Shown here piece by piece: positions 4,926 through 62,135 of a stretch of 64,000 bases of DNA. The DNA is taken from the NCBI GenBank assembly GCA_041390625.1, contig JAWKPM010000010.1, positions 42,514 through 106,513 of the forward strand. Reading direction: 5' to 3'. The position numbers were made by a program, and so were the translations under genes. Every line of letters begins with the position of its first letter. The first letter of the stretch is position 1. Source of the stretch: Dehalococcoidia bacterium. GTDB taxonomy: Bacteria > Chloroflexota > Dehalococcoidia > UBA2979. The notes under the pieces were generated by a model. It was given only the letters and a program-made list of their open reading frames with translations. It did not search any database and was not told where the DNA came from.

Positions 4926-6005
4926 ATGAAGTGGCTCGCGTTCCTCGGATTCCTGGTTGTGGCCTCGATGGTCGTGGGGTGCCGGGACGAGGACCTCGAC
5001 GGCGTCGAGCGCGCCTCGAGGGTTGCGGCGGCGCGGGCGGAGGCGGCGCGGCTCCACGAGGGGGCCTCGTTCGGGATTCAGCGGTGGAACGAAGTGGACT
5101 CGGTCGAGCCTCTGAACGAGGTGGCGGGGTTCGATGTCGTCGTGCCTCGAGGGTTGCCGGACGGGTTCACCGTCGACTGGGTCGTGGCGCAGCCGCCGGT
5201 CGTCGAGCCGAACGGCGGTCAGACGCTCACGATCGCAGTGGTGGCGGTCTCCGCGCGCGCCCGTGAAGGCGTGATCCAGGTGATCGAATCGAGCCGGCCG
5301 CCCGACGAAACCACTGCAGGCACGCAGGTCGCGATCGGCACGACGGTCGGTCGCCTGAGCTACCCACGCTCGGCGGGGGACGGGAGCCCGTTCGCCCAGG
5401 TGGCGTTCACGGGTTGCGGCCTCGGACTGGGGGTGACGACGTACAACCTCGAGACGGGGCCGACCTTCACTGCCGACGAGGTGGTCATCGTGGCGGAGGC
5501 GACGTTCGAGTCGTGTGACGCGGAGCCCGAGGGCGAGTCCCTCGACACACGCTACTTCGTCATCAAGCGTGACGACGCGGTGCCGGATCTGGCTGCGTTC
5601 GAGGCACAGATGGGCATCGACGTCACGCTGCCGACGTACCTGCCGGAACGCGTGACGCCACGTTTCCTCTACGGGTTCCCGTTGTTGCCCGGAACCGGCA
5701 GCAGGCGCGAGAGCCACAGTGTCGCGACGGTGTACGGGCTTGGAGCGAGCGGATCGTTCGTGCTCGCGCAGGAGAGCGCTCGCAACGAGATGGGCGAGGG
5801 CGAGGGCGTCGATGTTGGAGGCGTGCGGGGACACCTCGCGCGATTCGACCCGGCCGATGGTCGCCCGTGGCGACTGACGTGGGAGGCGTGCGACCTCGCG
5901 TTCTCGCTCGAAGTGCCGTCGTTCGATGGGGTGCCGGGTGCGAGCTCGCTCGCGGACGAGGAGCTGATTCGCATGGCGGCCTCGATCGTCGAGGGATGCG
6001 AATGA
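4926..6005 (+). CDS. Lipoprotein, two-repeat paralog family (LolA/DUF4367-like, tentative), copy 1
   Basis: Signal peptide plus lipobox (LVVASMVVGC). Has two internal repeats with the GFDVV.P.GLP / IDVTLPTYLP motif and a C-terminal ...AASIVEGCE. Paralogous to 7582-8664, 8730-9331 and 9979-10617. Confidence 0.7.
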   Translation: MKWLAFLGFLVVASMVVGCRDEDLDGVERASRVAAARAEAARLHEGASFGIQRWNEVDSVEPLNEVAGFDVVVPRGLPDGFTVDWVVAQPPVVEPNGGQTLTIAVVAVSARAREGVIQVIESSRPPDETTAGTQVAIGTTVGRLSYPRSAGDGSPFAQVAFTGCGLGLGVTTYNLETGPTFTADEVVIVAEATFESCDAEPEGESLDTRYFVIKRDDAVPDLAAFEAQMGIDVTLPTYLPERVTPRFLYGFPLLPGTGSRRESHSVATVYGLGASGSFVLAQESARNEMGEGEGVDVGGVRGHLARFDPADGRPWRLTWEACDLAFSLEVPSFDGVPGASSLADEELIRMAASIVEGCE

Positions 6006-6157
6006 CCTCGATGGGCCGATGGTGCTGAATCCGGGACTCGCGACGATGATCGTGGTAACTGACGAGTCTGACGGGCCTCGGTGGTGCGTCGGGGTCGATC
6101 ACGGCAGGGTGTCGCTTCTCGCCGGATGCGTCGCGCTGCCTCGATGCGGGGTGTCGC

Positions 6158-6805
6158 GTGACACAGTCGCCGGCCGGCACGGACGTTCCTGAGGGCGAGC
6201 TCGCCGACGGCGAACTCGTGCGGGTGGTGTACGTCACGGAGCCGGTGGAGCGGCCGTTCGTCGCGCGAGTGGAACACTCCTCGGCGGAGACGACCTCGAT
6301 CGATCTCTTCCGGCTGCCGGGGCGCCAGACGCCGCCGGGGCGCGGCGAGCCGATCGTGATCGTTGCGGACCACCGCACGCCTCGACGGGCGTTCGAGGCG
6401 CACGTGCTCGCGGTCCGGCCGACGCCGCCTCGAATGGAGGTGACGCGGCCGGTCGAGGCGCAGCGGGACGAGCGACGATCGGCGCCTCGGGTGCCGTACG
6501 TCCTCGAGTTCGAGGGCACCGTGCCGGGCGTCACCGGCGTGGCGAGCACGTTCCGCGGCAAGACGCAGGACCTCAGCCGGCGCGGCGCCGCCCTGAGCGC
6601 GGACATCGACCTCCCCCCGGACACGGAAGTGGCGCTGCACGTCCTGCTCGGCGACGAGAGCCCGCCGCTCGCGGTACAGGCGGTCACCCTGCCTCGGATC
6701 GCGCGCGGACGGGCGCGGGGGGCGCTGCGCGTGCGCTTCACCTCGGGCGATGGCGACGCGTTCGCACGCCTCGAGACGATGCTCGAGCAGGCCTCGGGCT
6801 CCTGA
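6158..6805 (+). CDS. PilZ domain protein (c-di-GMP receptor) with a ~100-aa N-terminal extension
   Basis: GTG start. PilZ signature RRSAPR ... DLSRRGAAL (RxxxR ... D/NxSxxG). Confidence 0.75.
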   Translation: MTQSPAGTDVPEGELADGELVRVVYVTEPVERPFVARVEHSSAETTSIDLFRLPGRQTPPGRGEPIVIVADHRTPRRAFEAHVLAVRPTPPRMEVTRPVEAQRDERRSAPRVPYVLEFEGTVPGVTGVASTFRGKTQDLSRRGAALSADIDLPPDTEVALHVLLGDESPPLAVQAVTLPRIARGRARGALRVRFTSGDGDAFARLETMLEQASGS

Positions 6806-6818
6806 TACCGCTTCGATG

Positions 6819-6839
6819 CCCGCCTCTTCTCGGGGCGGG
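6819..6839 (+). terminator. GC-rich hairpin (CCCGCC-N9-GGCGGG) 14 nt after the PilZ stop; no U-tract
   Basis: Inverted repeat read directly from the sequence. Lacks a T-run, so only terminator-like. Confidence 0.35.
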
Positions 6840-6989
6840 TGGGTTCGATCCCGCGGACCTCGACGCCCGGCCGAAGCGCCATGCATCGGCATCACGAATG
6901 AAGGTATAGACCATCACATTCCTGACGATGATCTGACATCCTGACGTCCATCTGACGTCCATTGCAGGTCGAGTCCGGGAGCGTCCCCC

Positions 6990-7529
6990 ATGCAAGTCGT
7001 GCTCTGCGATACGTGCCACCAACCCCTCGGCGGGCGAACCACCGAGATGCACCTGTTCTTCGGGGAGGCGTTCTCGACGCACGACGGTCGCGCTCGGGTG
7101 GCGCACCGCGGGACCTCGAAGGTGTTCAACCTCTGCCAGGGGTGCGGATCCTGGCTCGAGGGGGCGCTGAAGCACCTGCGCGCCTCACACGACCGCCGCA
7201 CGTCGCCTCGGATTCCCGTTGCCCTGGAAGTGGAGGGCATCGTCCTCGACCGAGCGGGGCTGGCGAGCACGTTCCACGCGCGGACGATCAACCTGAGCCA
7301 GGGCGGCGCCGCGCTTTCGACGAACGTCGACATCCCGGCGGGCACCGAGGTGATGCTCCGCTTCCTCGTTGTCGACAAGTCCTTCGAACTTCGAGCGGTG
7401 GCACTGCCTCGGATCGCACCGAGCGGGGATCCGCCGTTGCGTGTTCGCTTCACGGCGAACGACGACCGAGCGCTGGATTGCCTGGACCAGGTGCTGCGCG
7501 CGGCGGCGTCCGCCTCGAGGGCCGCGTAG
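6990..7529 (+). CDS. Zinc-ribbon-PilZ domain protein (c-di-GMP receptor)
   Basis: N-terminal CDTC...CQGC ribbon, then PilZ motifs RRTSPR ... NLSQGGAAL. Confidence 0.75.
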   Translation: MQVVLCDTCHQPLGGRTTEMHLFFGEAFSTHDGRARVAHRGTSKVFNLCQGCGSWLEGALKHLRASHDRRTSPRIPVALEVEGIVLDRAGLASTFHARTINLSQGGAALSTNVDIPAGTEVMLRFLVVDKSFELRAVALPRIAPSGDPPLRVRFTANDDRALDCLDQVLRAAASASRAA

Positions 7530-7581
7530 GCCCGGCCCGGCTCTACACTCCCCGCCACGATCGCGCAGGCCGGGAGGGCAC

Positions 7582-8664
7582 ATGACCGGGCGGAGCGGGG
7601 CGCTCGCGCTGCTGGGGTGCCTGGCGCTGGCCTCGATGCTCGCGGGGTGCCGCGACGAGGACCTCGATGACGTCGAGCGCGCCTCGAGGAACGAGGCGGC
7701 GCGGGCCGAGGCGGCACGGCTGCACGAGGGCGCCACGTACTTCCTGATGGACGTGGCAGAGCTCGATGGCGCGGCGGCGCTGAGTGCAGCCGTCGGCTTC
7801 GACGTCGTCATGCCCCGGGGGCTGCCGGAGGGCCTCGAGGTGAGCGTGGTCATCGGACAGGCGGCGCAGCCCTTCGATGGCGCGTCGTCGCCGGCACTGG
7901 CGAGCGTGACGATGTTCCGCCGTGGCATTGATGGCCTGGTGCAGCTGCTCGAGCTCGAGGGACCGATGGACCCGAGCACGGCCGGTGAGGACGTCGCCCT
8001 TGGTGACGGCGTCGGGCGCCTCGCGGAAGCAACCGGCGAGGGGTCGCCCGGCCGCTTCACCACGCTGACGTTCGAGGGGTGCGGCCTCACCCTCGCGATC
8101 TCGATGCTCGGGCTCGACGCCGAGGGCCCGCCGATCACGCGCGACCAGGCGATCGCGATGGGCACCGCGACGCGCGCCGGCTGCGCAGAACCGCTCCCGG
8201 AGACACCGGTCGTGCGGTACTTCCAGCAGCGACTGGTCGACCTGCCGGACCGTGCTGCCTTCGACGCGAGGGCGGGCTTCGATGTGGTCCTGCCCTCCTA
8301 CCTGCCGCCCGACGCGATGCCGACGTGGGTGACGGGACAGCCGTTCCTGCCCGGCTTCAACGGGGAGCCGGACGGCCGCGGGGCGCAGGCGGTGTACGGC
8401 CTCGATGGGGGGACGCTGCTGCTGACGGAGGGCACGAGACGCCTCGACGTCTCGGCGGGCACGGTGGTCGCGGTGGGCGACCGCAGCGGGCGGCTGCTGC
8501 GCGAGGCCTCGGAGGACGGGGTGCAGCTGATGCTGGCGTGGGAGGGCTGCGGCCTCGAGTTTGCTCTGACGGCGCTGTCGTTCAACGGGGCCGCGGACGG
8601 GCCGCCGCTCGACGAGACGGAACTCGTGCGCATCGCGGCATCGATGCTCGACGGGTGCGAGTGA
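7582..8664 (+). CDS. Lipoprotein, two-repeat paralog family, copy 2
   Basis: Internal ATG at 7582 preceded by GGGAGGG. Lipobox LASMLAGC. The first 25 mature residues are near-identical to copy 1 (CRDEDLD.VERASR..AARAEAARLHEGA). Repeats GFDVVMPRGLPEG and GFDVVLPSYLPPD. C-terminus IAASMLDGCE. Confidence 0.75.
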   Translation: MTGRSGALALLGCLALASMLAGCRDEDLDDVERASRNEAARAEAARLHEGATYFLMDVAELDGAAALSAAVGFDVVMPRGLPEGLEVSVVIGQAAQPFDGASSPALASVTMFRRGIDGLVQLLELEGPMDPSTAGEDVALGDGVGRLAEATGEGSPGRFTTLTFEGCGLTLAISMLGLDAEGPPITRDQAIAMGTATRAGCAEPLPETPVVRYFQQRLVDLPDRAAFDARAGFDVVLPSYLPPDAMPTWVTGQPFLPGFNGEPDGRGAQAVYGLDGGTLLLTEGTRRLDVSAGTVVAVGDRSGRLLREASEDGVQLMLAWEGCGLEFALTALSFNGAADGPPLDETELVRIAASMLDGCE

Positions 8665-8729
8665 CCTCGTTGGTGCGATTCATCCTCGAGGCGGACGCGA
8701 TGCTGCGCGGGCGGCCGTAGCCTCGAGGC

Positions 8730-9331
8730 ATGCGCGTCGCCTCGACGATCCCGGTGGTGCTGGCCTCGATGATCGTCCTCGGGTGCACGAGCGGCGGGGA
8801 TGGTGTGCCAGTGGCCGAGGACGCGACGTTCGAGTGGTGGGATGGGGAGCAGACGCACGCGCGGGTCCCGATCGAGGGCGGCCTCGATGGGGTGGCGGAG
8901 CGCCTCGAGTTTGAGCGGTGCTGCCCTCGGAACTGCCGCACGGGATGGAGTTGCGCTCCGTGCTCGCGATCGGGATGACGTTCGGCGATCAAACGGCACC
9001 AGGCCTGACCTCGGTGCAGCTCGAACTCCGCGACGACGAGAACGCACACCGTCTGTCGCTCGGGGAGCACCAAACGGAGCCGGGCCGGGGGCCGTCGCTC
9101 GCGTTGAACGGGGCGCGCGACGTCGAGATCGCGGGCGTCCCCGTGCGGCGGCACAATCGACCGCCGGAGCCAGGGTGGCCGGATGGCCTGCGCCTGGCCT
9201 CGTGGGTGGCGTGCGGGCTCGAGTTCGGCCTCGGGGGGCCGTTCACCGAGTTCAGCGGGCCGGAGTTCGAGGCGGTCGTGGCCTCGATCATCGAGGCGTG
9301 TGAGGGAGAGCGAGCCTCGGGGGTGCGTTGA
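8730..9331 (+). pseudogene. Frameshifted paralog of the lipoprotein family (single-repeat form)
   Basis: Signal peptide and lipobox (LASMIVLGC) in frame 3 to ~8900 (..LDGVAERLEFE). The homologous continuation (VLPSELPHGMEL ... VVASIIEACEGE) is in frame 2 (8918-9331). Implies a +/-1 frameshift near 8900-8930. Confidence 0.55.
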
Positions 9332-9425
9332 ACCTGTTCATACGTGATCGTTTCAACGTTGATCATAGTTTAGTGCCTGCTAATGTCACCTCGATGTTTT
9401 GACTGCTGCATCGATGGAGGCAGGT

Positions 9426-9938
9426 ATGCACGTTCGACTGATTCGCATCGGGGCGGTGGCCCTGATGCTCGCGACCGCCCTCGTGTTCGTCGGCTGCTCG
9501 GACGACGAGGCCGACGAGCCGGTGGCAGGCGGCGATCCAACGGCGGCCGCGGATCCCGAGGCCGACCCGGAGGCGGACCCGGTCGCCGGCGGCGGGCACG
9601 AGGTGGGGACGCTCACCAACTTCGACGAGACGGTCGAGGTCGACCTGATGGAGTGGGCCGTGAACCCTGACCGCGCCTCGGTGCCGGCCGGGCTCGTCCG
9701 CTTCGTGGCAACGAACGACGGCAGCGAGGTGCACGAGTTCGTGCTGATCGAGGGCACCTCGAAGGACGGCGAGGAGGTGACGGAGATCGAGGGCATCGCG
9801 CCGGGCGACAGCCGCGAGATTGCCGCCCGCCTCGAGCCGGGGACGTACCAGCTGGCGTGCCTGATCGTGGAGGTCGAGGGCGGTGAGACCGAGGACCACT
9901 ACGACCTCGGGATGCACATCGAGTTCACGGTGGAGTGA
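9426..9938 (+). CDS. Cupredoxin-like lipoprotein (EfeO-N-terminal 'Cup'-like), paralog of 53002-53703
   Basis: ATG at 9426 is 5 nt after GGAGG. Lipobox LVFVGC. The C-terminal ~100 aa align with the EfeU-coupled protein (EWAV.P....AG.VRFVA.N.....HE..L......LEPGTYQLACLI...GE.TEDHY..GMH.EFTVE). Confidence 0.7.
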   Translation: MHVRLIRIGAVALMLATALVFVGCSDDEADEPVAGGDPTAAADPEADPEADPVAGGGHEVGTLTNFDETVEVDLMEWAVNPDRASVPAGLVRFVATNDGSEVHEFVLIEGTSKDGEEVTEIEGIAPGDSREIAARLEPGTYQLACLIVEVEGGETEDHYDLGMHIEFTVE

Positions 9939-9978
9939 GCCCGCGCGCCTCGGCCTTCGATGTAGCATCGAGGGCGTG

Positions 9979-10617
9979 ATGATTGCGCGGTTCGCGGAGT
10001 GGCGGAGCGCCTCGGCGGTGGCCGGGGCGCTCGTCGTCTCCGCGCTGGCCTCGATGGTCGTGGCGTGCTCGGACGGCGGGGACGCTGGTGGCGTGCCGGT
10101 GGCCTCGGATGCCGCATTCATGGTGGTCGAGTCCGACGGGTCGAGACGGGCCGTCGATCACCTCGAGGCGTTGCTCGAGCTGGCAGCGTTCGAGGTGGTG
10201 CTTCCCGCCTCGCTGCCTGAAGGCGTCGAGCTGCAGAGCGCGCAGTTGACGCTGCCCGACCCTCGATTCGAGTCGATGGCGCCCTTCGCCCGAGCGCGCG
10301 CCACGCCGGTGCTTCTCAGCTTTCGGGGCCCCGGCGAGGATGCGGCGCGCGGCTTCGCGGTGATGGAGTACGAGGCCGCCGGCGGCAGTCCGACCACCAT
10401 CGGCGACGCAGGCGCGATCGCCTTCGAGCTGCCCGGTGCCGAGGGTGCTCAACTCCTCGACCTGCCGCTCGATGGCAGGCGAGCGCAGTCGGGGACGTCC
10501 GTCGTGTGGCGCGCGTGTGGCGTCGACTTCGCATTGACAGCGCCGGGGTCAGACGTGATGCCTCGGGAGGAGGTGCTCGACCTCGCGCAGGCGTTCATCA
10601 CGGGGTGCGGGTCGTGA
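9979..10617 (+). CDS. Lipoprotein paralog, single-repeat form (copy 4)
   Basis: Lipobox LASMVVAC. Repeat motif LAAFEVVLPASLPEGVEL. Conserved C-terminus LDLAQAFITGCGS. Confidence 0.7.
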   Translation: MIARFAEWRSASAVAGALVVSALASMVVACSDGGDAGGVPVASDAAFMVVESDGSRRAVDHLEALLELAAFEVVLPASLPEGVELQSAQLTLPDPRFESMAPFARARATPVLLSFRGPGEDAARGFAVMEYEAAGGSPTTIGDAGAIAFELPGAEGAQLLDLPLDGRRAQSGTSVVWRACGVDFALTAPGSDVMPREEVLDLAQAFITGCGS

Positions 10618-35151: not shown

Positions 35152-35462
35152 GTGTGTCGCCTTCGTCTCAGTGGGGCGTGCGTCGTTTGAGAACGAGGAT
35201 CGAGCAGCGCCGTTGCGGCCCCGTGAACGAGGTGAGACGGACACATGAACTCCGCGTCACGCGACCGTCACGTGCGGGTCGCCGTTGGGTCGCCGACAGG
35301 TCGCGGGGCGACTGCGCGCGGGCTTCAGCCGCGCTTCAGCCGCGCTTCAGCGAGGTTCAGAGGTGGCGTTCGACGCACGACTCTGAGTCATGACGTTAGG
35401 CACCGATGGTGTGAGAATCCCGCTGGGAGCCACGGCGCCTGCGTGCGTCGGTTGAGAACCGC

Positions 35463-59021: not shown

Positions 59022-59296
59022 CGATGCCCCCTTCTCGCGGCGGTGCACGTGCGAATTCGCGCCCACCGCGGCTTCGGCGGCATGGTAGCGGCCTCGACCA
59101 CACCTGTGGAGCGGTTGACGGTCCTCGAACCGGGCCCGTTCGAGGCCTCATGGGCCGTCTGCGGCGGCGCAGGAATACGGAATCATCCGGAATCTGCCGA
59201 CTCTCTGAGTATGCGTCCGTGAACCGGGACCTTCGGGACCCGGGCGGCGCGTACCTCGAGGCCTGCGCGGGCAGGCTCGCCGTCGAGAGGCCGACC

Positions 59297-60922
59297 GTGA
59301 CCGAGCTGCAGCGCCTGCTGGAACCGAAGCGCCGAGGACGGCGGCCGGACGACCACGAGCCGCTGCGTTGCCTCGCGATCGACGCGCAGGGCGGGCCGTC
59401 GCGCGAGATGGCGAAGCTCCTCGACAAGACCGACCAGCGCTGGATCCTCGACCGTGCCGAGCGGCTCCCGACCGCCCTCGAGGCGCTGAGCTCGGGCGAG
59501 TTCCACATCGTGCTGGCACATGTGCGGCAGCCGGACGGCCAGGTGCTGAACGCGTTGCAGCGGATGCGCCAGGTCGCGCCGGAGACCGCGGTCCTCGTGC
59601 TGACCGAGTTCGCGCCTCAGGCGTTCGCGGAGCAGGCGCTCGGGCAGGGGGCGCAGGACGTACTGCAGCGCTCCAAGCTGGACGCCTCGACGCTCGCGCA
59701 CGCGATTCGGTACTCGATCGAGCGGCAGCGGATTCGCGGCCTGTACGAGCGGGAGCTGTGGTCGGCCTCGATCCTGCACATGGACTACCTGAGCATCGTG
59801 TCGAACAGCGCCGACGCGATCCTGATCCTCAACCAGGGAGGCAGCGTCGAGTTCCTGAACCCGGCGGCGGAGTCGATGTTCGGCGTACGGGCGGCAGAGG
59901 CGATCGGACGGCCGTGCCCCTTCGGGCAGGTCACGAGCGACTCCTTCGAGATCGAGGTGCCGGACCGCGAGGGGCGCCCGCGCCAGGCCGAGGTGCAGTC
60001 CGTCGAGACCTCGTGGCGGGGCCTCGACGCGACGCTCGCGGTGGTGCGCGACATCACGGACCGACGCGCCCTCGAGCTGCAGCTCGGGCAGGCGCAGAAG
60101 CTCGAGTCGGTCGGTCGCCTCGCGGCCGGCATCGCCCACGAGATCAACACGCCGACGCAGTTCATCACCGACAACGTGAAGTACCTGCGCGGCGTCTTCG
60201 AGCGGTTCGTGCCGGCCGTCGCGGCCGCGGAGTCGCTGCTCGAGGCGGCGGAGGCCGGCCCCCTCGATCAAGGCGCGCTCGAGGAGCTGCGCACCTCGGT
60301 GGCGGCGGCACGCCTCGAGGACGCGCGCGAGGAAGTACCGGAGGCGTTCGAGGACAGCCTCGATGGGCTCAAGCAGGTGGCGCGCATCGTGGGTGCGATG
60401 AAGGTGTTCGCGCACCCGGGATCCGAGGAGAAGACGGGCGTCGATCTGCGCCAGGCGATCGAGAGCACGGTCGCCGTCGCTCGCCACGAGTGGCGCGACG
60501 TCGCGGACGTCGAGCTCGACATCGAGGAGACGCTACCGACGGTGCCGGCGATGGGCGGCGACCTGAACCAGGTCATCCTCAACCTCATCGTGAACGCCAG
60601 CCAGGCGATCGAGGACCGGCCGAACTGCACCGAGCGCGGCCGCATCGACATCCGGGCGCACCGCCGGGGCGACTGGGTGGAGATGTGCGTCTCCGACAAC
60701 GGCGTCGGCATCCCGGACGAGAACCGGAAGCACATCTTCGATCCCTTCTTCACGACGAAGGAGGTCGGTCGCGGGACCGGGCAGGGGCTCTCGATCAGCC
60801 GGACGATCGTGGTGGAGCGGCATGGCGGGATGCTCGACGTGGCCTCGAAGCCGGGCGAAGGCTCGACGTTCACGGTGCGCCTGCCGCTGACGGAGGAGGC
60901 CGCGCTCCAGGGCGCGGCGTAG
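59297..60922 (+). CDS. Sensor histidine kinase with N-terminal pseudo-receiver and PAS domains
   Basis: GTG 6 nt after GAGAGG (alternative ATG at 59408). The REC-like N-terminus has Ala where the phospho-Asp should be (FHIVLAHV). PAS domain. H-box LAAGIAHEINTP. N, G1 and G2 boxes (DNGVGIP, GTGQGLSIS). Confidence 0.8.
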   Translation: MTELQRLLEPKRRGRRPDDHEPLRCLAIDAQGGPSREMAKLLDKTDQRWILDRAERLPTALEALSSGEFHIVLAHVRQPDGQVLNALQRMRQVAPETAVLVLTEFAPQAFAEQALGQGAQDVLQRSKLDASTLAHAIRYSIERQRIRGLYERELWSASILHMDYLSIVSNSADAILILNQGGSVEFLNPAAESMFGVRAAEAIGRPCPFGQVTSDSFEIEVPDREGRPRQAEVQSVETSWRGLDATLAVVRDITDRRALELQLGQAQKLESVGRLAAGIAHEINTPTQFITDNVKYLRGVFERFVPAVAAAESLLEAAEAGPLDQGALEELRTSVAAARLEDAREEVPEAFEDSLDGLKQVARIVGAMKVFAHPGSEEKTGVDLRQAIESTVAVARHEWRDVADVELDIEETLPTVPAMGGDLNQVILNLIVNASQAIEDRPNCTERGRIDIRAHRRGDWVEMCVSDNGVGIPDENRKHIFDPFFTTKEVGRGTGQGLSISRTIVVERHGGMLDVASKPGEGSTFTVRLPLTEEAALQGAA

Positions 60923-60932
60923 GGAGGACACG

Positions 60933-62135
60933 ATGACCAGACGTCGAGTCCTGTTCGTCGACGACGAGCCTCGTGTGCTGCGAGGTCTGCGGCGTCTGCT
61001 CGACCCGATGCGGGACGAGTGGGAAATCTCCTTCGCGGAGTCGGGCGCCGAGGCCCTCGACAAGCTGAGCGAGGCCGAGTTCGATGCCGTCGTCACCGAC
61101 ATGCGCATGCCGGGCATGGATGGCGCCGAGCTGCTGCACGAGGTGCTGCGCCGCCACCCACACACCGTGCGCATCGTGCTGTCCGGTCAGTCCGACCAGG
61201 AGACGCGGCTGCGCGCGGCCGGCCCGACGCACCAGTTCCTCACGAAGCCCTGCGACGAAGAGACGCTGCGGCGCACCCTCACCCGGGCGTGCGACCTGCG
61301 CGATCTGCTGCGTCGCGACTCCCTGCGCAGGCTCGTGGGGCAGCTGAAGACGCTGCCGAGCCTCGGGACGGTGCAGCGCGACCTGCGCACGGAGCTGATG
61401 TCGCCCGACCCCTCAATGCGGAAGGTGGGGGATCTCATCTCGCAGGACGTCGCGATGACGGCGAAGGTCCTGCAGCTCGTGAACTCGTCCTTCTTCGGCG
61501 CGCCGAAGCGCGTGGGCTCGGTGTCCGAGGCCGTGCTGATGCTCGGGCTGAACGTCATCCGCGACCTGATGCTGACCGAGTCCGTCTTCGGGGCGTACAT
61601 GGCCGACGGCGCGCTCGAGCTCGTCGAGCCGATTCGCGACCACAGCGACTTCGTGGGCGGCCTCGCGTACGAGATCGCGGCCGCCGAGGGCGCCGACCTG
61701 CAGGTGCGCGGCGACGCGCAACTCGCGGGACAGCTGCACGATGCCGGCGCGCTCGTGCTCGCGGCGAACATGCCGATGGAGTTCCGCAAGGCGGCGGCCG
61801 TCGCGCGCATGCGCAACATCGAGCGTTGGCAGGGCGAGGTTGAGCTCTTCGGCGCCGACCACGGCGAGGTGGGCGCGTACCTCCTCGGCATCTGGGGCAT
61901 CCCCGACCCGATCGTGGAGGCCGTGGCGTTCCACCACCGCCCGGCGCAGGCGCCGACGCATGGCTTCACGCCGCTCACCGCCGTGCACGTCGCCGACGCG
62001 CTGGCTCACGAGGTCGACGGGCAGGATGACTCCGTGCTCGTCACCTCGGTGGACGAGGAGTACCTCGAGCGGCTGGGGCTGCTCGACCGCCTCGATGGCT
62101 GGCGACTGCTCGCACTCAAGCGCAAGGCCGCCTAA
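60933..62135 (+). CDS. Response regulator, REC + HDOD output domain
   Basis: VLFVDDEP...DAVVTDMRMPGMDG (phospho-Asp context) followed by an HDOD-like domain. Confidence 0.8.
   Translation: MTRRRVLFVDDEPRVLRGLRRLLDPMRDEWEISFAESGAEALDKLSEAEFDAVVTDMRMPGMDGAELLHEVLRRHPHTVRIVLSGQSDQETRLRAAGPTHQFLTKPCDEETLRRTLTRACDLRDLLRRDSLRRLVGQLKTLPSLGTVQRDLRTELMSPDPSMRKVGDLISQDVAMTAKVLQLVNSSFFGAPKRVGSVSEAVLMLGLNVIRDLMLTESVFGAYMADGALELVEPIRDHSDFVGGLAYEIAAAEGADLQVRGDAQLAGQLHDAGALVLAANMPMEFRKAAAVARMRNIERWQGEVELFGADHGEVGAYLLGIWGIPDPIVEAVAFHHRPAQAPTHGFTPLTAVHVADALAHEVDGQDDSVLVTSVDEEYLERLGLLDRLDGWRLLALKRKAA

Follow-up and report, generated by a model that had tools for sequence, protein, structure and literature searches.

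Shared upstream motifs of two PilZ genes in a Dehalococcoidia bacterium and a candidate OmpR-family regulator

Two nearby genes for PilZ-domain proteins, here called PilZ1 and PilZ2, lie in a 64-kb stretch of DNA from a Dehalococcoidia bacterium (the window; all positions count from its first letter), and each is preceded by the same decamer and by short CTGAC(G) direct repeats. Does this resemblance mark a common regulatory element, and if so, which protein would read it? A first-pass annotation of the window had proposed that one direct-repeat-binding response regulator controls both genes. Our analysis indicates that the shared motif is probably the binding site of a transcription factor, and it leads us to a fuller reading, whose prospects we consider evenly balanced: both sites would be copies of a conserved bipartite cis-regulatory module of a small signalling regulon, serving as the operator of an autoregulated OmpR-family regulator. 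The two parts of this module, a CTGAC(G) repeat array and a box CGATGATC(C), are both rare in background sequence.

The two sites in the window

The site in front of PilZ1 (site 1; positions 6040–6075, forward strand, GCGACGATGATCGTGGTAACTGACGAGTCTGACGGG) lies 83–118 nt 5′ of the GTG start codon at 6158, and the site in front of PilZ2 (site 2; 6920–6962, forward strand, with 6921–6962 reading CCTGACGATGATCTGACATCCTGACGTCCATCTGACGTCCAT) lies 28–69 nt 5′ of the ATG at 6990. As the first-pass annotation had described, a pattern search of the window finds the decamer GACGATGATC together with direct CTGAC(G) repeats at both sites, and the G+C content is lower there than in the flanks (0.55–0.63 vs 0.70–0.80). 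Site 1 consists of a degenerate half-site GCGAC (6040), the box CGATGATC (6044–6051, forward strand) within the 5-1-5 palindrome ACGATGATCGT (6043–6053), and two CTGACG half-sites (6059 and 6068), which form the pair CTGACG-N3-CTGACG (6059–6073, forward strand), 9 bp apart and off-phase. Site 2 carries four CTGAC half-sites at 6922, 6933, 6941 and 6952, separated by steps of 11, 8 and 11 bp. Repeat finders resolve this array into a 19-nt unit present 2.2 times plus a perfect 11-nt tandem of CTGACGTCCAT; the latter duplication, also noted previously, was found by Tandem Repeats Finder with 2.0 copies at 100% identity. The site 2 box (6926–6933, forward strand) forms the spacer between the first two half-sites, in the arrangement CTGA-CGATGATC-TGAC, and the decamer is here composed of the first CTGACG, its spacer ATGAT and the C of the following unit.

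Between the two sites, the decamer and the next CTGACG are in register (offset 882, with a spacer of 7 nt in both), and the CTGACG after that follows 9 bp on in site 1 and 11 bp on in site 2. The order common to both is a weak GAWGGT 24 nt upstream, TC-NN-GACGATGATC, the 7-nt spacer and CTGACG. All CTGAC(G) half-sites of the two sites lie head-to-tail on one strand, two plus one degenerate copy in site 1 and four in site 2.

How unusual is such a motif in its own sequence context? The decamer occurs three times in the 64 kb (6042, 6924 and 29362), the third copy lying in coding sequence with no CTGACG after it, and the composite pattern GACGATGATC-N7-CTGACG-N3/5-CTGACG matches only at 6042–6073 and 6924–6957, with no match in 100 shuffles. 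Among the 32 GATGATC heptamers of the window, the only intergenic ones are those of the two sites, although intergenic DNA makes up ~6.5 kb of the window. Five CTGAC pairs are closely spaced, four of them at the two sites, and paired CTGAC is otherwise absent from the intergenic DNA. Comparison of the two upstream regions gave p = 0.003 for the D2 word statistic (k = 6) and p = 0.002 for a hexamer locally repeated in both, while a shared 10-mer appears in 6% of dinucleotide shuffles (p = 0.06); the joint within-window probability of the shared motif is ~1e-4. Generic alignment measures are unimpressive in the window's 70% G+C DNA: Smith-Waterman and ungapped scores between the two regions were not significant, and BLAST returned many background matches of equal quality. 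From the window alone, the shared element is probably real, with moderate, not compelling support. Decisive support for the motif comes from its recurrence in independent sequences.

Recurrence, helical phasing and a candidate regulator

Both genes downstream of the sites encode PilZ proteins, as annotated (PF07238, E = 2.9e-9 and 3.9e-8; 37.6 and 34.0 bits, cut-off 22.5). PilZ1 (MEZ4503246.1; 6158–6805, forward strand) has a C-terminal PilZ domain, in which an alignment shows intact motifs for binding of cyclic di-GMP (c-di-GMP), RRSAPR (RRxxxR) and DLSRRG (DxSxxG). In PilZ2 (MEZ4503247.1; 6990–7529, forward strand), residues 1–70 (6990–7199) form a CxxC...CxxC zinc ribbon (ZR) and the remainder a PilZ domain, whose binding motifs, RRTSPR (RRxxxR) and NLSQGG (NxSxxG), are likewise intact in the alignment. 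The PilZ domains of the two proteins are 48% identical and their N-terminal parts are unrelated. The N-terminal 104 residues of PilZ1 have no detectable relatives; a reading of this region as a degenerate ZR domain was rejected, as the ZR profile does not score PilZ1.

Neither protein has an orthologue among 5.8 billion proteins, where each matches only itself; an exhaustive HMMER search with PilZ2 returned no full-length relative, and a metagenome scan with a PilZ alignment no PilZ orthologue. Sequence relatives of the PilZ proteins were not found in the PDB, and an AlphaFold model of PilZ2 was unusable (predicted local distance difference test, pLDDT, 39). The HMMER search did show that PilZ2 residues 1–70 belong to a family of stand-alone ZR proteins of 60–107 aa, which is covered by no Pfam or NCBIfam model and whose profile scores PilZ2 at E = 1e-29. 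As judged by this match, PilZ2 is a fusion of a ZR protein with a PilZ domain. More than 25 clusters of ZR proteins are listed among the HMMER matches. In other genomes, the ZR genes usually stand right after an R3H/SpoIIIAA-like ATPase gene and a thymidylate kinase gene (tmk).

The phylogenetic footprinting that the first-pass annotation had suggested for PilZ orthologues was thus run on homologues of the ZR family instead, and both sub-motifs recur upstream of these genes. We compared 150-nt upstream regions from seven independent ZR lineages (L021, L022–L025, L026, L027/L028, L029, L030 and L031), which are otherwise unalignable, with a 325-kb background, using words fixed before the ZR loci were seen. 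The coding strand has six copies of CTGACG (0.39 expected, p = 4e-6) and the opposite strand none; for CTGAC the counts are nine (0.85 expected, p = 3e-7) and one. The heptamer GATGATC is present in four of the seven regions (p = 7e-4), every time as CGATGATCC, which in this form, trimmed post hoc, gives p = 3e-8. A control region upstream of the radical SAM gene contained GATGATC in none of 16 loci. The strict composite DNA pattern of the window had 0 matches in the metagenome contigs.

The arrangement of the two sub-motifs differs between lineages. In L022–L025 the box reads CACGATGATCCACGTGG at −48, with half-sites CTGACGaagcaCTGAC...CTGAC at −123, −112 and −90, and in L027/L028 it reads TCGATGATG at −38, with CTGACG-N16-CTGACG at −134 and −112. 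L026 has an inverted box, GGATCATCG at −36, and half-sites CTGACGaagcgCTGAA; L029 has GAAGATCGTGGTA, 13/15 identical to site 1, and half-sites CTGACGattctCTGAG; and L030 has no exact box and CTGAC at −151, −121 and −99. In L031 the box GTGACGTCGATGATCCACGTGG at −61 is abutted by TGACG, and the two together read GTGACGTCGATGATCC, an adjacent arrangement as in the window. The L021 ZR gene has the box CCGATGATCC at −52 and no CTGAC-type half-sites. The first-pass annotation had treated the full decamer as the conserved unit; across lineages this unit narrows to CGATGATC(C), which is separable from the CTGAC repeats and lies 40–75 nt from them in other lineages. In L022 (1860–1875) and L031 (1505–1520), the box is extended to a common 15-mer, CGATGATCCACGTGG, with a perfect palindrome, CCACGTGG.

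When CTGAC-N6-CTGAC and CTGAC-N17-CTGAC were scanned in 356 kb, such pairs were found almost only at site 2, in ZR upstream regions (L022–L025, L027/L028 and L030) and upstream of a regulator gene in L021 described below, with one stray pair in coding sequence. Counting only strict CTGAC units, six of the nine spacings at these promoters equal 11 or 22 bp. Half-sites one or two helical turns apart are seen in site 2 (11 and 11 bp), L022 (11 and 22), L027/L028 (22), L030 (22) and the L021 regulator (22 and 22). Exact 11- or 22-bp steps reflect the geometry of the DNA helix, which argues for a protein contacting one face of the duplex.

Which protein could this be? No DNA-binding regulator is encoded in the window; the search for one yielded only a hybrid kinase and a REC-HDOD protein ~52 kb away. 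(At 59024–62135, a hybrid histidine kinase gene, REC-PAS-HATPase, is followed by the gene for the REC-HDOD response regulator.) The ZR contig L021 comes from the same metagenome-assembled genome (MAG) as the window, since its ZR protein P0007, MEZ4503068.1 (R3C39_10620), shares its accession and locus-tag series with PilZ1 and PilZ2. Here the ZR gene, which encodes a stand-alone paralogue of the PilZ2 zinc ribbon, is followed by an HDOD gene, and on the opposite strand lies the gene for MEZ4503070.1, an OmpR-family winged-helix regulator (L021 1767–2498, reverse strand; Trans_reg_C, E = 1.3e-16). In its degenerate receiver domain (E = 6e-4), reading by eye finds no acidic pocket (DD), phospho-acceptor Asp, T/S or K, suggesting that MEZ4503070.1 may be a phosphorylation-independent atypical response regulator. 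Upstream of its gene, the coding strand carries GTGAC-N17-CTGAC-N17-CTGAC at −79, −57 and −35, exactly 22 bp apart; the first two half-sites enclose GACCATCGTC, which matches the decamer in inverted orientation at 9/10 positions. Three or four promoters of the same MAG therefore share elements, those of PilZ1, PilZ2 and the regulator, and that of the ZR gene with the box only. MEZ4503070.1 is the best candidate for the regulator of the motif. The flanks of its gene in L021 hold HDOD-domain genes and an RTX-repeat gene, and HDOD genes also flank the ZR gene.

What we observe is sequence conservation, strand bias, helical phasing and co-occurrence with a regulator gene; that a protein binds, which regulator it is, in which direction it acts and what the box does are inferred. 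In the mechanism that we propose, module A would be the CTGAC(G) direct-repeat array, on the coding strand with start-to-start distances of 11 or 22 bp and on one helix face, and module B the box CGATGATC(C), a quasi-palindrome. An OmpR/PhoB-type winged-helix regulator, with MEZ4503070.1 as the best candidate, would bind the CTGAC half-sites head-to-tail and, once bound, co-regulate PilZ1, PilZ2 and its own gene. The box would be a second operator, or else a promoter element peculiar to the regulon and resembling a −10 hexamer (GAnnAT). Its independence of the repeats would allow for two factors, or for one factor together with a promoter element; we favour an operator for a dimeric protein because the box is quasi-palindromic (as in the site 1 palindrome) and is found in both orientations. 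The earlier proposal of one direct-repeat-binding response regulator for both PilZ genes thus gains a shared specific element, phased repeats and an OmpR-family candidate from the same genome, but its restriction to a single factor may not hold.

Several observations weigh against an operator of this kind. The half-sites of site 1 are 9 bp apart and site 2 has an 8-bp step between its 11-bp pairs, off-phase distances at which a rigid head-to-tail array cannot occupy every half-site. Where the repeats lie with respect to the box and the start codon varies: they stand upstream of the box in other lineages and flank it or lie downstream of it in this MAG, and the stand-alone ZR gene of the same MAG has a box without CTGAC repeats. 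The link to the regulator comes from one promoter in one short contig. Among the footprint statistics, strict a priori status applies to the heptamer and hexamer tests only, because the box was trimmed to its 8-mer and 9-mer forms post hoc. In addition, the ZR lineages are related by descent and not fully independent phylogenetically, and part of the CTGAC conservation may reflect this descent, because in four syntenic loci the first CTGAC contains the thymidylate kinase stop codon.

Hardly any work has addressed how uncultivated Dehalococcoidia and other Chloroflexota regulate their genes. If the proposed module is real, it would define a motif, phased CTGAC repeats plus the CGATGATC box, and a regulon whose core comprises a widespread unannotated ZR family, two c-di-GMP receptor (PilZ) genes and a regulator gene; it would also name a candidate regulator amenable to expression and in vitro testing with no need to culture the organism. 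The domain fusion and the shared upstream elements tie the orphan small ZR family to c-di-GMP and HDOD signalling. A more far-reaching idea, which we regard as very improbable, is that c-di-GMP reaches transcription in Chloroflexota by a hitherto undescribed route, in which MEZ4503070.1, as an atypical, phosphorylation-independent OmpR-type regulator, would be controlled by protein partners from its own regulon. These partners would be the small ZR protein, PilZ2, PilZ1 and the neighbouring HDOD proteins, and the PilZ proteins would be both targets and c-di-GMP-sensing co-regulators of the operator, giving a feedback loop.

The PilZ locus and competing explanations

The PilZ genes lie in a lineage-specific 5.8-kb insertion (4926–10617) between a radical SAM gene and yggS, which contains four paralogous lipoprotein genes (lipo1 and lipo2 are 43% identical), the two PilZ genes and one gene for a cupredoxin lipoprotein. 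In 17 related genomes (radical SAM protein 78–83% identical), the radical SAM gene is directly followed by yggS, without PilZ or lipoprotein genes. Closer metagenomic relatives, L019 and L020, have lipoprotein genes at the insertion locus, and in L020 one lipoprotein gene directly follows another with no PilZ gene between them. The third lipoprotein paralogue of the window (8730–9331) is split over two frames (8730–8978 and 8918–9331), corresponding to a frameshifted pseudogene or an assembly error. Each lipoprotein gene in L019 and L020 is preceded by an intergenic element of ~90 nt (GGCTGCCCGCCCGCCC...TTCTT..GCGGGGGC...CCGGACCTCGGAGG; L019 727–822, L020 382–481 and 1571–1703), a diverged copy of which follows PilZ1 in the window (6815–6875).

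This copy includes a G+C-rich hairpin of 9 bp (6818–6840, forward strand), located after the PilZ1 stop codon and present in both the minimum free energy and centroid structures. The predicted hairpin is probably a terminator, in which case PilZ2 would have its own promoter; a consensus terminator scan did not call it, as it has no T-run. Between site 1 and PilZ1, the region 6076–6200 contains a 31-nt direct repeat (6085–6115 and 6127–6157), with copies 71% identical that each end in GGGTGTCGC, and weakly resembles DNA coding for a lipoprotein signal peptide and lipobox (p = 0.006–0.03). The PilZ1 start codon may therefore lie in a decayed lipoprotein 5′ end. Two derivations of site 1 itself were considered and rejected: as a lipoprotein signal-peptide relic (A-S/T-M-I-V codons), since lipoprotein N-terminus profiles gave E = 30–49 at the motif region, and as a duplicate of the PilZ-domain coding start (repeat family D7), which scored at background level.

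The separability of the box lends itself to another account, which we consider rather unlikely, namely that two independent elements are involved: CGATGATC as the −10-like core of a regulon-specific promoter, its hexamer GAnnAT being read by an alternative sigma factor or belonging to an unusual housekeeping promoter, and the CTGAC repeats as a separate operator for an activator or repressor. The box does stand alone upstream of the L021 ZR gene and lies 40–75 nt downstream of the repeats in L022, L026, L027 and L030. At 28–56 nt from the ZR start codons it would leave 5′ untranslated regions of plausible length, its variants GATGAT, GATCAT and GAACAT all retain A2 and T6 of a −10 hexamer, and, because GATGATC is no common word of the window's intergenic DNA, a sigma factor that reads it would have to be regulon-specific. 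However, no conserved −35 partner was found, and a sigma-70 promoter scan of 5800–7700 (TTGACA-N16-18-TATAAT-like hexamers) was empty; the site 1 box is 106 nt from its start codon, and the box is quasi-palindromic, with inverted copies in L026 and ahead of the regulator gene, as is more readily expected for a dimeric DNA-binding protein than for a strand-specific −10 element. (Sigma-54 and ECF-type, i.e., extracytoplasmic function, promoter readings were checked by eye and dropped.) An element acting at the RNA level looks improbable. Here CUGAC repeats and a CGAUGAUC box in a 5′ leader or in an intercistronic tmk-ZR transcript would be the site of an RNA-binding protein or a small RNA, or a processing signal, in line with the strong strand bias of CTGAC (9 vs 1) and with repeats that, in four syntenic loci, begin at the preceding gene's stop codon and would be transcribed if these form an operon. 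Yet exact 11-/22-bp phasing belongs to the DNA helix and not to RNA, the box occurs in both orientations, and direct repeats are strand-asymmetric anyway. Moreover, folding energies are ordinary (z = −0.9 and −1.5), RNAalifold found no consensus pair in eight homologous leaders, and Rfam returned nothing at gathering score, with only chance-level matches in 5900–7100, c-di-GMP riboswitches included.

The locus could also have acquired its repeats without any function. That they are relics of the duplications that built the cluster, local slippage having made the 11-nt tandem and 6006–6157 being partly a decayed lipoprotein 5′ end, is quite improbable in our view, because the same words stand in front of ZR genes from lineages with <50% protein identity, and again ahead of a regulator gene elsewhere in this genome; such cross-lineage conservation makes a relic unlikely. 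The motif flanks, too, are at random identity, the PilZ domains are only 48% identical and the N-terminal domains are unrelated. What speaks for relics is that the cluster is a lineage-specific paralogue array, that the second copy of CTGACGTCCAT is perfect and hence recent, that the signal-peptide-like signal at 6076–6200 exceeds that of three control gene 5′ ends (p = 0.085–0.67), and that generic alignment statistics for the two upstream regions are unimpressive. As for chance, a coincidental resemblance in G+C-rich DNA spotted post hoc, the shared 10-mer taken alone would be compatible with it, and exact repeats of 10–12 nt are common within 1.2 kb of this DNA. The joint within-window probability and the independent loci (p = 4e-6 and 7e-4 for a priori words) are strongly against it, and we give it almost no credence.

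Comparison with known systems

The kind of mechanism proposed here is well known; no new principle is involved, and what gives the system its value is a new regulon that can be tested. We found no match for CTGACG direct repeats in the literature. The MrkH protein of Klebsiella is a PilZ-domain transcription factor that regulates its own expression through the MrkH box. As in our case, a PilZ-domain gene is preceded by a specific operator, so that a PilZ protein acting on its own promoter is conceivable; the MrkH motif is unrelated, however, and nothing indicates DNA binding by PilZ1 or PilZ2.

The Pho boxes of PhoB/PhoP consist of 11-bp direct-repeat units such as CTGTCAT-N4, to which the winged-helix proteins bind head-to-tail. 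Their location is fixed: they stand in for the −35 element, 10 bp before the −10. The 11-bp period of the direct repeats is common to both systems, and CTGACAT at 6933 is one base off the E. coli pho-box core CTGTCAT. In contrast to Pho boxes, the repeats described here vary in position relative to the start codon and the box, and their gene context is not phosphate-related.

The nearest parallel comes from GlnR of actinomycetes, an atypical OmpR-type response regulator that binds GTnAC-n6-GTnAC, often in tandem with four half-sites (PMC3087709). The only exact GTnAC-n6-GTnAC of the window (0.5 expected) is GTGAC-N6-GTGAC at 35256–35271 on the reverse strand, 11–26 nt upstream of an amidase gene; this possible further operator is of low confidence and a lead only. 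Further upstream of the same gene, at 35322–35351, lies the only other perfect 11-nt tandem repeat of the window, GCTTCAGCCGC in 2.7 copies, with CTGAAGC units on the amidase strand, and these repeats may represent another direct-repeat operator.

The system described here differs from GlnR in its host, a Chloroflexota MAG and not an actinomycete, in its putative targets, which are PilZ, zinc-ribbon and regulator genes and not genes of nitrogen assimilation, and in the additional conserved CGATGATC box. The half-sites at the PilZ promoters begin with C instead of G and do not fit the half-site consensus GTnAC or GAAAC, although CTGAC matches GTnAC at four of five positions. Common to the two are 5-nt half-sites, a 6-nt gap and a period of 11 bp, often with tandem units giving a 22-bp register, and GlnR belongs to the OmpR family and has a receiver without conventional phosphorylation, as would be expected for the candidate MEZ4503070.1, which appears to lack the phosphorylation residues.

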